Assembly (NCBI GenBank): GCA_036378955.1
Contig: DASUVM010000007.1
Location: 36,442-100,441 of the forward strand
Source of the DNA: Candidatus Saccharimonadales bacterium
GTDB lineage: Bacteria > Patescibacteriota > Saccharimonadia > Saccharimonadales > Saccharimonadaceae
Direction: 5' to 3'
DNA: 64,000 nt
A model generated the notes under the pieces. It had not been told where the DNA came from. It ran no database searches and saw only the letters and a list, made by a program, of their open reading frames with translations. This document shows, piece by piece, positions 17,921 to 43,463 of the stretch. Position 1 is the first letter of the stretch. Each line of letters opens with the position of its first letter. Both the position numbers and the translations under genes were made by a program.

Positions 17921-18037
17921 TTATGTGGGTTGAACCCCGTCCTTGAACGGGTCACCTTCATCGGTATTATCCTCGATAGTATCCTCGCCACCGGGGCGAA
18001 TCTTGCTCACGCCTCGGGCATACAGAAGAGTGCTCAT
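17921..18037 (-). CDS. 38-codon ORF with a perfect Shine-Dalgarno (hypothetical small protein)
   Basis: My translation is MSTLLYARGVSKIRPGGEDTIEDNTDEGDPFKDGVQPT*. AAGGAGGTGA lies 6 nt upstream of the ATG. The ORF sits in an otherwise empty 630-bp gap and is below the ORF-track cutoff. Confidence 0.35.
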   Translation of the reverse strand: MSTLLYARGVSKIRPGGEDTIEDNTDEGDPFKDGVQPT

Positions 18038-18264
18038 GTGCTGTCACCTCCTTCCAATTCCACGCCGTCATGTACATCTGGAGTGTATCTCCAAACTACC
18101 CCTTTATGATACACCGAATTATTAAATAATAATATAATAAACCTACCTATTCATACTTTGCCATCTACCCACCTTGGCAAACTCAACAGAGAATTGAAAT
18201 TGATCACTCCTGTCGGTGCTAATTACTATAGAATAACTAAGATACCTCTGTTAAAATAACTTTT

Positions 18265-19353
18265 ATGAGTTCTCTTTCCATCGGCATAGTTGGCCTACCA
18301 AACGTCGGTAAATCGACGTTATTTAATGCCTTAACTAATAATAATATTTTGGCAGCTAATTACCCGTTTGCCACTATTGAGCCAAACACGGGTATTGTGC
18401 CAGTGCCCGACCACCGGCTTGAAGCGCTTGGCAAGTTATACAATACCCAAAAAATTGTGCCTGCAACGGTGACGTTTGTAGATATCGCCGGTTTAGTTGC
18501 TGGTGCCAGCCAAGGTGAAGGCCTTGGCAATAAGTTTTTAGCGAATATTCGTGAGTGCGATGCAATCTGCCATGTGGTGCGAGCTTTTGATAACAGCGAT
18601 GTGTTGCATGTTTCTCAACGAGTGAACCCGCAAGAAGATATTGATATTATTAACACCGAGCTGGTGCTTGCCGATTTGCAAACATTAACTAATCGTTTGC
18701 CAAAACTGGCTAAAGAGGCCAAAGCCAACCCTAAACTTCGTTCAAACCTTGAAGCGTTAGAAGAATTACAAAAACGACTCGAAAATAACCAGCCACTCTG
18801 GCAGTTCCCCGCGCTGCTTGAAACGCACGCTGAATTGCTGCGTGATCTTCATTTACTTACCGCCAAAAGAGTAATATATGTGTTCAATGTTGATGAATCA
18901 ACCTTAAGCGACCAAGCGCGCCAGCAAGCCCTAGCCGAGCTCGTGGCGCCAAGCCAGGCACTCTTTCTTTGTGCGGCACTTGAAGATGAGCTGCGCGGGC
19001 TTGATGCAGACGAGGCGACAGAGCTACTGGCAAGCTATGGTCAGCACGAATCAGGTTTGCATCAGTTAGTTCGAGCGGCTTATGATACGCTTGGTCTACA
19101 AAGCTTCTTAACAGCCGGGATAAAAGAGGTTCGCGCCTGGACAATCAAAAAAGGTGCAACCGCACCAGAGGCTGCCGGTGCTATTCACACTGACTTTCAA
19201 AAAGGGTTTATTGCGGCACAGGTAGTTGATTTTCACGATCTCGTTGAGGCCGGCTCAGAAGGAGCCGCCAAAGCTGCCGGCAAGCTTCGCACTGAAGGTA
19301 AAACCTATGTTATGCAGCCAAATGATGTAGTTGAATTTAGGTTTAACGTATAA
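18265..19353 (+). CDS. ychF: ribosome-binding ATPase YchF (Obg-family GTPase fold)
   Basis: GIVGLPNVGKSTLFNALT, DIAGLV, and a C-terminal TGS-like end VMQPNDVVEFRFNV. Confidence 0.92.
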   Translation: MSSLSIGIVGLPNVGKSTLFNALTNNNILAANYPFATIEPNTGIVPVPDHRLEALGKLYNTQKIVPATVTFVDIAGLVAGASQGEGLGNKFLANIRECDAICHVVRAFDNSDVLHVSQRVNPQEDIDIINTELVLADLQTLTNRLPKLAKEAKANPKLRSNLEALEELQKRLENNQPLWQFPALLETHAELLRDLHLLTAKRVIYVFNVDESTLSDQARQQALAELVAPSQALFLCAALEDELRGLDADEATELLASYGQHESGLHQLVRAAYDTLGLQSFLTAGIKEVRAWTIKKGATAPEAAGAIHTDFQKGFIAAQVVDFHDLVEAGSEGAAKAAGKLRTEGKTYVMQPNDVVEFRFNV

Positions 19354-19494
19354 ATAAAGACGCTTTTTTAGCGCCACATAATCTTTTTATGGGATTTCAG
19401 CCTGGAACGTACGGGGGTGACTGGCTGCCACCTCACCGTACGCCCAGGTTGGTAGCGCCAGTTAAGGCCCTACCGGGTGTTCACTTCAGCTGTT

Positions 19495-41757: not shown

Positions 41758-41771
41758 GAATAATCTAAAGC

Positions 41772-42692
41772 TTACGCCCGAGTGGCAATTTTTAATAACG
41801 TTTGTTCAAGCAGTAACCAAGGGTCAAGCCCGGTTGATTTTAGCTGGGTATCAAGCTCTGCGGTTGCATCAATAATATTTTTTAACTCAAGTGGTGAGGT
41901 GCGGCGTGCCAGCGGCGCAAGTTTTTTGAGCGGAAACGGATGCGTAGCGAGTGCCTTGGCGATCTCGTCAGAGCTACGCCCTTTGCTTCCATGTACAAGC
42001 GCCGCCAGTTGCAATAGCTGGGCACTAAGCAGGCCAAAAAGCATATATGGATCTTCTGTTGTTCGAGCAAGCCATAACTGTTGTTCAACTTGCTGCCGCT
42101 CTTTATGCAAAACGGCGTCGAGTAGTGCAAAAACGTTCGCATGGGGGGTAAGCTCAACTAGTGCTTCAATTGCCGTGTCGTCAAGGCCATGTGCAAGTAA
42201 TTTGTCTAGCTCGTTCGAAAGCCGCCATTGGTCAGTGCCGGCCCGGGCAATAATGTGTTCAGCTTGTTTAGGGTTCAGCACACCTCTGCGTGCTTTGGCC
42301 TCGTTTTGCAACCATTTTGCTGCTTCAGCCTCATTCAACTGTCTATAATCTGTTATTGAGGCGTGCTTTTTCAATAATTTGAAGGTTTTAGTGCGTTGAT
42401 CGACCGCGGTTTCAATCAAAAGAACATCTGTTCCTTCAGGAACATGCTCAACCCAACGCTCACATTCTACCCACAACGCTTTGTTTTTGCTTACGTCACG
42501 TATCACCACTAACTTTTCGGCCGAGAACAATGAAGCCCCTTGCAAAATAGCACCAAGCTGTTTTGGTTCAAGTGTTTCACCATCGTAATGCTCAATTGTT
42601 GGCATGCTCGGTTTTATTCGAGCAGCCGCAATAAGCTTATTAGCTGCTTGCTGTTTCGCGTAGGCATTGTCACCCAAAAAAAGGTATGTCAC
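41772..42692 (-). CDS. holA: DNA polymerase III delta subunit
   Basis: 306 aa; YLFLGDNAYAKQQ..., LFSAEKLVVIRD, and a helical C-terminal domain. Size and pattern are typical of HolA. Confidence 0.75.
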   Translation of the reverse strand: MTYLFLGDNAYAKQQAANKLIAAARIKPSMPTIEHYDGETLEPKQLGAILQGASLFSAEKLVVIRDVSKNKALWVECERWVEHVPEGTDVLLIETAVDQRTKTFKLLKKHASITDYRQLNEAEAAKWLQNEAKARRGVLNPKQAEHIIARAGTDQWRLSNELDKLLAHGLDDTAIEALVELTPHANVFALLDAVLHKERQQVEQQLWLARTTEDPYMLFGLLSAQLLQLAALVHGSKGRSSDEIAKALATHPFPLKKLAPLARRTSPLELKNIIDATAELDTQLKSTGLDPWLLLEQTLLKIATRA

Positions 42693-42743
42693 TTTGCTAT
42701 TTTATCACCTTGAGTAAGAGGTTTAAGCTTTTCATTTATGATG

Positions 42744-43463
42744 CTACCGGATCGGCACAACTACTTCGAATATAGGCGTACCGGTTCGATACTTTTGTGC
42801 CTCGACCTCAGCTAGTCGAACACCAAAAACATCATTCTTGGGCCATTGTCCGATGGCTACATAATCGTTTTTGTCGGGCCGAGAAAGAGGTACGGTGATA
42901 TCGTGCGCACCAGGATAGGGCTTGTCTGACAGTGGCGTCTTAGCAGTGTCTTCATGTATGACATATTGGGCATGAATCTGCACCCTGCCAGTAACAGTAC
43001 TCGGAGTACATTCATCTTTCTCTGTCATTTCTCCTGGTTTGCCCGGCGTACCCTTAGAAGAGTCTAGCTTCCACCGAGCAGTTTTTAACTCATCCTCATC
43101 TAACGCCGTCAGGCGAAAACCATCTGCTTCTGCGTCAAACACTAACTCAAGTGCCGCCCCCACTCCGGCTTCACCCAACTGAATGATAGGCTGCACAATA
43201 ATATCGCCAGACTTTTGAAACTCTACCGTACCAGGAAAAATACTCACCGCCTCACCTTTTATGAGCAGTGTAGGGTCTGGGTCGCCAGGGCGACCGTTTA
43301 ACAGGCAATCGGTTAACTGCTTTGGTGTAGGCACTGGCTGTGCCTCGGGGGCATACCTGCAACTGACAGTAGTAACGGCCGCTAGGGCTATGGCGCCAAC
43401 TCTTTTGGCTGCTTTTGCCATACCGGGTTTAAGGCGTTCGAAACGAGGTAGTCTTTCAGGCAT
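42744..43463 (-). CDS. hypothetical secreted protein or lipoprotein
   Basis: Signal-like AKRVGAIALAAVTTVSC|RY. No recognised domain. Confidence 0.45.
   Translation of the reverse strand: MPERLPRFERLKPGMAKAAKRVGAIALAAVTTVSCRYAPEAQPVPTPKQLTDCLLNGRPGDPDPTLLIKGEAVSIFPGTVEFQKSGDIIVQPIIQLGEAGVGAALELVFDAEADGFRLTALDEDELKTARWKLDSSKGTPGKPGEMTEKDECTPSTVTGRVQIHAQYVIHEDTAKTPLSDKPYPGAHDITVPLSRPDKNDYVAIGQWPKNDVFGVRLAEVEAQKYRTGTPIFEVVVPIR

Follow-up and report, generated by a model that had tools for sequence, protein, structure and literature searches.

The stretch of DNA analyzed here, which we call the window, is a 64-kb segment (47.1% GC) of the chromosome of a soil member of the Saccharibacteria (TM7). 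It probably consists of a conserved housekeeping backbone with lineage-variable genes lodged between the backbone genes, and three of these positions appear to hold captured GC-rich cassettes of about one open reading frame (ORF) each. High-GC Actinobacteria are the most likely donor of the three cassettes. Saccharibacteria live as epibionts on other bacteria, and the cultivated ones have Actinobacteria as their host phylum. As judged by sequence comparison, the case for a foreign origin is decisive for a whiB gene, whose donor would be an Actinophytocola-like member of the Pseudonocardiaceae. It is plausible for a gene encoding an LAxTG surface protein and for a gene encoding a Zn-metallopeptidase.

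An initial annotation of the window had pointed out three sharp GC-rich islets, and these are real. The background for z scores was 60 window ORFs, in which GC content at third codon positions (GC3) is 0.437 +/- 0.048 with a maximum of 0.579. The four ORFs in the three islets stand at GC3 z = 5-8, and the islet edges lie exactly on ORF boundaries:

19495-20532, minus strand: ISL1, a predicted secreted surface protein of 345 aa in the TlyA-YchF slot; GC 0.630, GC3 0.818, z = 7.9
35203-35460, plus strand: ISL2, a whiB1 xenolog of 85 aa between rpsO (S15) and pnp (PNPase); GC 0.647, GC3 0.744, z = 6.4
37887-38090, plus strand: ISL3a, an orphan of 67 aa with two hydrophobic helices, absent from the closest relative; GC3 0.676, z = 5.0
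38119-38421, plus strand: ISL3b, an orphan of 100 aa with two hydrophobic helices; GC3 0.743, z = 6.3

All 600-bp tetranucleotide outliers of the window (z > 3) fall within 17.5-41.7 kb. The idea that the GC-rich islets are structured RNA genes was rejected, as they gave no Rfam or tRNA match at gathering thresholds and all of them are coding.

Related loci were collected by tblastn anchored on RNase J, with one genome per species, and the best 80 of 254 loci were used; the titles of these 80 are nearly all Saccharibacteria. The gene order Fpg-holA-S20-(628 aa)-TruB-S15-PNPase-UDG-RNaseJ-FtsK-S6-SSB-S18-EFP-TlyA-YchF is conserved across them. We refer to the gaps between these backbone genes, whose content varies, as slots. 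The S6-SSB-S18-EFP block is essentially never interrupted in the related loci, whereas the other slots range from 0 to 6.6 kb. The genes that border the slots directly adjoin in many of the 80 loci, and the convergent TlyA and YchF genes overlap by 4 nt in 23 of 38. The proposal that the islets are insertions between conserved housekeeping genes is therefore upheld. The closest relative, REL, is a complete 1.26-Mb chromosome (OY969928.1) covered by loci L001 and L081. Identity to the window is 81-99% for its housekeeping proteins (~70-76% in the other relatives) and 72-88% in nucleotide sequence for the genes that flank slots, and synonymous divergence is close to saturation. Some slots, among them TruB-PIGL, RNaseJ-FtsK and TruB-S15, hold other cargo in REL than in the window. 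Where it lacks a window gene the slot holds other sequence, and no clean empty site was found in REL.

ISL2 matches the Pfam WhiB family (PF02467) over the full profile (1-65) with 91.9 bits against a cutoff of 23.6. It has four cysteines (C9, C37, C40 and C46), the F17/F18 pair, a GVWGG turn and a basic C-terminal tail (KRRNASRVRTRSNI), and its cysteine ligands, GVWGG turn and tail align to Mycobacterium tuberculosis WhiB1. The best matches are in Pseudonocardiales, with 93-94% amino acid identity to Actinophytocola WhiB. The cluster of ISL2 at 90% identity or more has 37 members, and every named one listed belongs to Actinophytocola (including Actinophytocola xanthii) or Pseudonocardiaceae. 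At the nucleotide level, the whiB genes of the window and Actinophytocola are 82% identical, those of REL and Actinophytocola 85%, and those of the window and REL 84%. The Actinophytocola homolog lies in 68% GC DNA in the order DAGK - whiB - histidine kinase - anti-sigma - sigma, which we take to be the arrangement around M. tuberculosis whiB1. The best match of ISL2 in the PDB is M. tuberculosis WhiB1 (3.4e-40), while WhiB, WhiB3 and others follow at 1e-13 to 1e-15. From this ranking, the whiB1-type locus of its closest homolog and its mere 35% identity to the other Wbl domain of the window, ISL2 is an ortholog of whiB1 and not of the other Wbl paralogs.

Nucleotide homology to the actinobacterial whiB locus covers the ORF plus ~12 nt, which include the ribosome-binding site, and nothing further. 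Two elements frame the gene in the window:

35127-35155, plus strand: predicted sigma-70-like promoter (TTGACA-17-TAGACT with TG) in AT-rich native DNA upstream of whiB
35489-35529, plus strand: terminator hairpin, GGATCCGGAAGCTC...GAGCTCCCGGATCC followed by a T-run, read from the sequence downstream of whiB

The TTGACA box, a GGTACACC box, a GGAGG ribosome-binding site and the downstream hairpin are common to the window and REL. The upstream TTGACA and GGTACACC boxes do not occur in the actinobacterial whiB locus, and the hairpin of that locus differs from the one in the window and REL. Since the window and REL share these junction elements, a single insertion in their common ancestor is indicated. 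Of two residues, Y5 and T30, first taken to be derived and common to the WhiBs of the window and REL, T30 is also present in P0009, which leaves only Y5.

The ratio of nonsynonymous to synonymous divergence (dN/dS) of whiB between the window and REL is 0.08, which points to strong purifying selection. With an actinobacterial outgroup, 17 third-position changes prove specific to the window lineage (13 strong-to-weak and 2 weak-to-strong) and 4 to that of REL. GC3 is 0.74 in the window copy, 0.85 in REL and 0.86 in the donor-like gene. GC-to-AT amelioration is visible directly in the window copy. The housekeeping proteins have changed at equal rates in the two lineages (46 vs 43 changes). Because the two whiB copies differ so much despite these equal rates, amelioration is an unreliable clock, and the degree of GC amelioration cannot date the acquisitions as had been suggested.

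Two further Wbl genes were seen. A second WhiB-domain protein of the window (50999-51817, minus strand; 272 aa) has its Wbl domain at residues 200-264 (Pfam, 69.1 bits), with four cysteines, an FF pair and GMWGG. Its gene is of ordinary composition (GC 0.475, GC3 0.44), overlaps the polA start and lies 0.75 kb from rpoD and dnaG. The protein is 35% identical to the acquired WhiB1 and looks like a native Saccharibacteria Wbl. Locus L016 carries another Wbl paralog in the same S15-PNPase slot (4716-4997, minus strand; 93 aa), which is 46% identical to the window WhiB and forms a local GC islet (GC 0.59 vs 0.41-0.47 in the flanks).

ISL1, whose GC-rich segment runs from ~19385 to 20535, encodes a signal peptide, two beta-sandwich (Ig/FnIII-like) domains, a disordered Thr-rich stalk, and LADTG followed by a transmembrane helix and RRRRA. 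The N-terminus reads VIKRSLATVAFALLLALVGTPAMA, and the C-terminus LADTG-ANVGWLVAGGVLLLVVGALVLWL-SRRRRA. The C-terminus matches TIGR01167 (LPXTG) with a score of 20.6 against a cutoff of 15.9, and the NCBIfam LAXTG and LAETG models match below their cutoffs. In the AlphaFold2 model, the mean predicted local distance difference test score (pLDDT) is 77, with 150 residues at pLDDT of at least 90 and a helix at 320-344; Foldseek finds tandem Ig/FnIII-like folds. With signal peptide, sorting motif, hydrophobic helix and positive tail all present, ISL1 is predicted to be a protein of the sortase-anchored type. The LAxTG sorting signal is typical of Actinobacteria, as the names of the NCBIfam models also reflect. 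The N-terminal cysteine domain (WPQ and CGQxDxYA motifs) and the 'VTNPN' Ig-like domain match no curated family in Pfam or NCBIfam, a tblastn search of plasmids with ISL1 gave no match, and no Pfam sortase match occurred among the ~60 of ~70 window ORFs that were scanned.

A word-indexed search with ISL1 returned only its positional ortholog in REL, at 48% identity, whereas an exhaustive HMMER search of 1.84 billion representative proteins revealed a family with full-length relatives (alignment A1). A search of metagenomes with a four-sequence family alignment added one short contig, L090. The member P0124 (37-40% identical to ISL1) is encoded on a contig of 71.5% GC, where its LysR neighbor matches Actinobacteria only. 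P0142 (32%) and P0125 (36%) occupy the same TlyA-YchF slot in two other Saccharibacteria, with GC3 of 0.85 and 0.67, respectively, in flanks of 0.35-0.5. GC-rich members of the family are thus found in this slot in at least four Saccharibacteria, and further members on mid-GC contigs of unknown taxa also exceed their neighbors in GC3. P0125 is 42% identical to the actinobacterial P0124 and 36% identical to the window protein; the tree of the LAxTG family therefore does not follow the species tree.

The nucleotide alignment of the window and REL is contiguous over YchF-ISL1-TlyA, and the two ISL1 copies appear to be orthologous by descent. One further element belongs to this slot:

20533-20680, minus strand: AT-rich spacer between TlyA and ISL1, 75-82% identical in nucleotide sequence to REL and taken as the native upstream, putatively regulatory, region of ISL1

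Between the window and REL, the spacers of the region are better kept (75-82% identity) than the coding sequence (50-73%), and dN/dS of ISL1 is 0.53. The protein is therefore fast-evolving and, as an exposed protein, probably under diversifying selection.

The Zn-peptidase gene deviates mildly in composition:

26678-27574, minus strand: YpfJ-type neutral Zn-metallopeptidase lipoprotein (lipobox VAGC, HEFGHH) in the RNaseJ-FtsK slot, absent from REL; GC3 0.562, z = 2.6, tetranucleotide z = 3.0

It matches Pfam PF04228 with 69.6 bits (cutoff 23.2) and has the HExxH-type zinc site. With the NCBIfam equivalog NF050010 it reaches 68 of the 250 bits required, so it is a member of the family and not an equivalog. 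One homolog is 55% identical and is encoded on an actinobacterial contig of 72% GC, and those in Streptomyces are 44-47% identical. Another, 49% identical, lies in the same RNaseJ-FtsK slot of L089, which has two paralogs there. L089 (JAEUQU010000002.1, 1.29 Mb) is a Saccharibacteria genome of 63% GC with the same UDG-RNaseJ...FtsK backbone and an RNase J GC3 of 0.86. The plasmid matches of the peptidase, to distant Proteobacteria and Firmicutes sequences at 26-33% identity, are uninformative. LAxTG and Zn-peptidase homologs thus occur on contigs of 71-72% GC whose neighboring genes match Actinobacteria only.

The ISL3 pair is framed in a manner similar to whiB:

37826-37854: predicted promoter-like site before the ISL3 pair
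38432-38463: GC-rich hairpin and TTTT, read from the sequence after ISL3b

Neither ISL3a nor ISL3b gave a match above threshold in Pfam, NCBIfam or PHROGs. ISL3b had no tblastn match in 50,697 phage records and none in a JGI metagenome scan, and the whole islet had no blastn match in plasmids. In REL this slot holds an unrelated gene of 302 aa, which is GC-rich as well; neither this gene nor a ROK-like gene of L014 matched plasmids. The initial annotation had described orphan genes without a recognizable housekeeping role. This is inaccurate for three genes, which encode the WhiB regulator, the LAxTG surface protein and the Zn-metallopeptidase lipoprotein.

The same annotation listed six further genes as richer in GC than their neighbors. 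Besides the Zn-peptidase gene these are:

30538-31761, minus strand: protein of 407 aa of a Saccharibacteria-specific family in the PNPase-UDG slot; mildly deviant, GC3 0.596, z = 3.3, tetranucleotide z = 4.7
21477-21932, plus strand: lineage-specific cytoplasmic protein of 151 aa in the EFP-TlyA slot, with a REL ortholog (54-56% aa identity, dN/dS 0.14); GC3 within the spread, z = 1.8
23806-24141, minus strand: acidic lineage-specific protein of 111 aa in the S6-FtsK slot, with a REL ortholog (54-57% aa identity, dN/dS 0.22); ordinary GC3, 0.438, z = 0.0
42744-43463, minus strand: putative lipoprotein of 239 aa (lipobox-like TVSC) in the Fpg-holA slot; ordinary GC3, 0.438, z = 0.0
17921-18037, minus strand: ORF of 38 aa with a strong Shine-Dalgarno sequence in a 630-bp intergenic stretch; too short for statistics, GC3 0.56

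The enrichment is mild for 30538 and 26678, both of which also emerge from the tetranucleotide scan. The genes 21477, 23806 and 42744 deviate in neither GC3 nor tetranucleotide composition, and their GC3 lies within the spread. The raised total GC of 23806-24141 and 42744-43463 is confined to codon positions 1 and 2 and so reflects amino acid composition. Homologs of 30538 occupy the same PNPase-UDG slot in L001, L049 and L079, and each stands ~0.17 in GC3 above backbones of 0.39-0.56. Because this excess is found in four lineages, it is a persistent trait of the family and not a mark of recent entry. In the REL ortholog (L001 7083-8259) the reading frame changes after about residue 346, which marks either a frameshifted pseudogene or an indel error of the long-read assembly. 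The gene 42744 forms a singleton cluster, and the Fpg-holA slot is empty in L014 (5-bp gap). We regard 21477, 23806, 42744 and 30538 as ordinary fast-evolving, lineage-specific slot genes and not as detectable imports, so the claim of foreign segments does not extend to them. Most of the orphan genes that look high in GC by eye are foreign by no test. For the 38-aa ORF no homolog was found, and REL has an unrelated gene of 433 aa at its position. This ORF is the only one within 17551-18300, in the YchF-PBP intergenic region, a segment that has a tetranucleotide z of 4.0 and yet is not GC-rich.

Of the slot ORFs in 67 loci, 6% showed a delta-GC3 of more than +0.2 and fewer than 1% one of less than -0.2; the 6% figure is only approximate, because spurious off-frame ORFs account for many of the GC-rich cases immediately downstream of RNase J. 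Relative to REL, the window has an insertion of ~1 kb (34181-35139, minus strand) located between whiB and the start of the PNPase gene. Its two orphan genes (139 and 164 aa) are AT-rich (GC3 0.36 and 0.30, z = -1.7 and -2.9), and neither has a Pfam match. This window-specific pair indicates that slot cargo is not GC-rich alone.

Three observations concern the backbone and slots more generally. The FtsK-S6 slot of REL (L001 15809-22103 / L081 1-6077) holds an insertion of ~8 kb, none of whose genes is in the window; they include a PMT_2 glycosyltransferase (GC3 0.76), a GtrA/GT2 protein of 880 aa (0.63), a cellulase and a phage-tail-like protein. Downstream of YchF, L091 has two genes (6532-7984) with weak matches to ADP-ribosyltransferase toxins (ART-PolyVal, ADPrib_exo_Tox). 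The window protein of 628 aa (39200-41086, minus strand) has no Pfam match, is 41-63% identical across Saccharibacteria and ends in a long Pro/Ala-rich C-terminal tail. This low-complexity tail, and not foreign DNA, causes a GC bump and GC-skew anomaly at 39.0-40.0 kb.

The islets do not show the marks of classical genomic islands. As the initial annotation had stated, no integrase or transposase (12.8-47.8 kb) and no tRNA (whole window) lies beside them; tRNA, tmRNA and Rfam searches gave no match anywhere in the window, and no search was made for flanking direct repeats. A single recombinase was seen in the window, a tyrosine recombinase (326-1354, plus strand; Phage_integrase and SAM-like N-terminal domains), which is probably XerC/D-like and lies 17 kb from the nearest islet. 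The window does contain type IV pilus genes at 4.5-12.8 kb (PilD, pilin, PilC, PilT, PilB, PilO and PilM). ComEC-dependent natural transformation, which works by homologous recombination, has been shown in cultured Saccharibacteria, and so has insertion into a neutral site flanked by convergent ORFs (PMC10633639). Uptake of host DNA by natural transformation is a plausible route.

We therefore favor the following sequence of events for the GC-rich cassettes. Host DNA released at the epibiont-host interface would enter the cell through the pilus/Com machinery, and a short segment of it would be integrated into a permissive intergenic site, such as one between convergent genes, through illegitimate or homology-facilitated recombination. 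The cargo sits behind a native promoter-like sequence and ahead of a terminator, and it is retained by selection, purifying for WhiB and probably diversifying for the surface protein. The WhiB and LAxTG insertions are older than the split from REL. Slot turnover continues, because the Zn-peptidase and the pair of small membrane proteins differ between the window and REL.

The recent, steady trickle of DNA envisaged in the initial annotation does not fit these data. Five of the nine genes (WhiB, LAxTG, 21477, 23806 and 30538) have positional orthologs in REL, the junctions of the two strongest islets are homologous, and synonymous divergence is near saturation. The five orthologs instead point mostly to old acquisition plus slot turnover. 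To gauge decay, we compared four-fold sites in eleven housekeeping genes (1,447 sites), 51.5% of which differ between the window and REL. Under the F81 model, each lineage then retains ~55% of the ancestral state, and a gene of 100% GC at the split is expected to have a GC content at four-fold sites (GC4) of ~0.76-0.77 now. The observed values for the window and REL are 0.76 and 0.79 for ISL1 and 0.76 and 0.83 for WhiB. If an actinobacterial gene had entered just before the split, neutral decay could only just account for these values. A clear conflict with neutral amelioration, obtained from a rough NG86 dS estimate, was withdrawn, as F81 on four-fold sites leaves a marginal conflict. Vertical descent of the LAxTG family from a deeper ancestor shared with L086 or L091 is incompatible with neutral decay. 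It follows that the family has been repeatedly replaced from GC-rich donors, or that its GC3 is actively maintained.

Several points weigh against capture from Actinobacteria. The neutral-amelioration test is marginal, with an expected maximum GC4 of 0.76-0.77 and observed values of 0.76-0.83. Families keep their slots in distant lineages (LAxTG in TlyA-YchF, Zn-peptidase in RNaseJ-FtsK, Wbl in S15-PNPase and the 30538 family in PNPase-UDG), and such fidelity is not predicted by random illegitimate insertion. Wherever members of the LAxTG family were seen, their GC3 is high. Because the 63% GC L089 exists, a GC-rich donor need not be actinobacterial. The best LAxTG homolog from outside Saccharibacteria, among the 1.84 billion representative proteins, is 37-40% identical, and the donor search for ISL3 in phages, plasmids and JGI metagenomes found none. 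The integration mechanism and the transformation route are steps that we infer.

The slot fidelity could be accounted for by exchange of cassettes among Saccharibacteria, through transformation and homologous recombination in the conserved flanks, by analogy with the pneumococcal capsule locus. The GC-rich cargo would then come from high-GC Saccharibacteria, or it would enter rarely from Actinobacteria and spread afterwards; exchange is thus compatible with actinobacterial capture and may be its second step. We consider exchange possible but doubtful. In its favor, REL carries other cargo in the same slots, a Saccharibacterium of 63% GC has the same backbone with two Zn-peptidase paralogs in the RNaseJ-FtsK slot, and transformation based on homologous recombination works in Saccharibacteria (PMC10633639). 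However, the flanks are only 72-88% identical between the window and REL, and far lower identity is expected between low-GC and high-GC genomes, which makes recombination unlikely. The window and REL have inherited the WhiB and ISL1 junctions from a common ancestor, and nothing suggests that the flanks are younger. Exchange also leaves unexplained why copies that are 32-54% identical have GC3 of 0.67-0.85. That high GC3 might instead be intrinsic to the LAxTG and 30538 families as old native accessory genes of Saccharibacteria, in which selection (for mRNA stability or for translation) or GC-biased gene conversion at recombination hot spots would maintain it. The LAxTG family does exceed its neighbors in all low-GC and mid-GC contexts examined (window, REL, L086, L091, L090 and L092-L094), the 30538 family shows its ~0.17 excess in four lineages whatever the backbone GC3, GC4 of ISL1 (0.76-0.79 in both species) is at or above the neutral maximum of 0.76-0.77, and its dN/dS of 0.53 resembles a conversion hot spot. 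Even so, we think this explanation unlikely. It cannot cover WhiB, 93% identical to Pseudonocardiaceae, and the LAxTG family has a bona fide actinobacterial member nested among the Saccharibacteria copies as well as a sorting signal typical of Actinobacteria. A rise in GC3 from 0.44 to 0.82 is far beyond the effects of biased conversion reported in bacteria, and the fast-evolving slot genes 21477, 23806, 34181 and 34645 are not GC-rich.

A rather improbable variant of capture is that host-mimic genes, namely a host-type LAxTG adhesin and a whiB1 with sigma-A-contacting residues, are repeatedly overwritten by conversion from host DNA, the adhesin perhaps serving homophilic, host-specific attachment. 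If true, it would explain the slot fidelity, the undecayed GC3 and a family tree that follows hosts and not epibionts, and the islets would be readable 'host barcodes' for uncultured Saccharibacteria. Cargo borne by a phage or another mobile element, such as a WhiB of actinophage type, is very improbable. WhiB matches 14 PHROG families of actinophage WhiB-like regulators, and REL has a phage-tail-like gene in its 8-kb FtsK-S6 island. The best WhiB matches, however, lie on chromosomes, where they are 93% identical whiB1 genes in the conserved whiB1 locus. ISL1 and ISL3 have no PHROG match, ISL3b is without a match in the phage records, and each islet is a single gene or pair with no integrase in 12.8-47.8 kb and no tRNA in the window. 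The metagenome-derived data and very sharp GC boundaries raise the question of an artefact of assembly or binning, in which actinobacterial reads were mis-joined into a Saccharibacteria contig. This is hardly credible and essentially refuted by the independent assembly OY969928.1, in which WhiB and LAxTG lie at the same positions with homologous junctions. Members of the LAxTG family also occupy the same slot in two further assemblies, and the window whiB carries lineage-specific GC-to-AT changes.

If actinobacterial capture is correct, it bears on several questions. The hosts of almost all environmental Saccharibacteria are unknown, and whiB1 predicts Actinophytocola or other Pseudonocardiaceae as the likely host here. 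Wbl proteins are described as exclusive to Actinobacteria and their phages (PMC13013590), a statement that the Wbl genes in Saccharibacteria contradict. Reduced, transformable genomes can gain genes as ORF-sized pieces that lack mobile-element genes and sit behind native promoter-like sequence. The recurrence of GC-rich surface-protein genes in one slot between convergent genes may reflect host tracking by epibionts. Genome scans call for caution, as orphan genes that merely look high in GC are mostly not foreign by the tests used here. Horizontally acquired islets and host-to-epibiont transfer are already known as kinds of phenomena. In the literature that we searched, we found no acquisition of whiB1 or LAxTG genes by Saccharibacteria from Pseudonocardiaceae, no recurrent GC-rich LAxTG slot, and no compositionally native Wbl next to rpoD.

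The islets resemble several known systems and differ from each of them. Flexible islets are known from competent and streamlined bacteria, and homology-facilitated illegitimate recombination is known from Acinetobacter and Streptococcus. Like such islets, those described here are small variable segments of atypical composition between syntenic core genes, without mobility genes and in a presumably competent organism. They differ in being single-ORF segments of 0.3-1.2 kb, at least one of which appears to come from the presumed host phylum, and in that the same families recur in the same slots over family-level divergence. ISL1 shares its signal peptide, Thr/Pro-rich stalk, LAxTG motif, transmembrane helix and Arg-rich tail with actinobacterial LAxTG (class E sortase) proteins of the SCO1860-type LAETG family, whereas its gene resides in a Saccharibacteria slot and its N-terminal domains match no curated family. 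Transfer from the host has been used as a clue to host identity, and competence proposed as the route, in Saccharibacteria and Patescibacteria (Baker 2021, PMC8386444; PMC12455944). Those cases concern Streptococcus-like sequence in the oral clade G6 or transfer between Patescibacteria in groundwater.

ISL2 resembles M. tuberculosis WhiB1 (WblE, Rv3219; PDB 5OAY, 6ONO) in having four cluster-binding cysteines, F17/F18, G[V/I]WGG and a basic tail in a protein of 85 aa. Unlike actinobacterial whiB1, it sits in a Patescibacteria genome, lacks the histidine kinase - anti-sigma - sigma neighborhood and is preceded by a native-looking predicted promoter. WhiB1 binds region 4 of the primary sigma factor, where F17/F18 contact His516-Pro517. 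In M. tuberculosis sigma-A, the substitutions H516A, H516F and P517A each abolish WhiB1 binding (PMC6954389). In an ungapped alignment to M. tuberculosis sigma-A (...SKLRHPSRSQVLRDYLD), the resident RpoD (52563-53606, minus strand) has Lys-His in place of His516-Pro517. The acquired WhiB1 keeps F17/F18, and it may or may not bind in the canonical way to the RpoD of its new genome, which by this alignment lacks the His-Pro pair.

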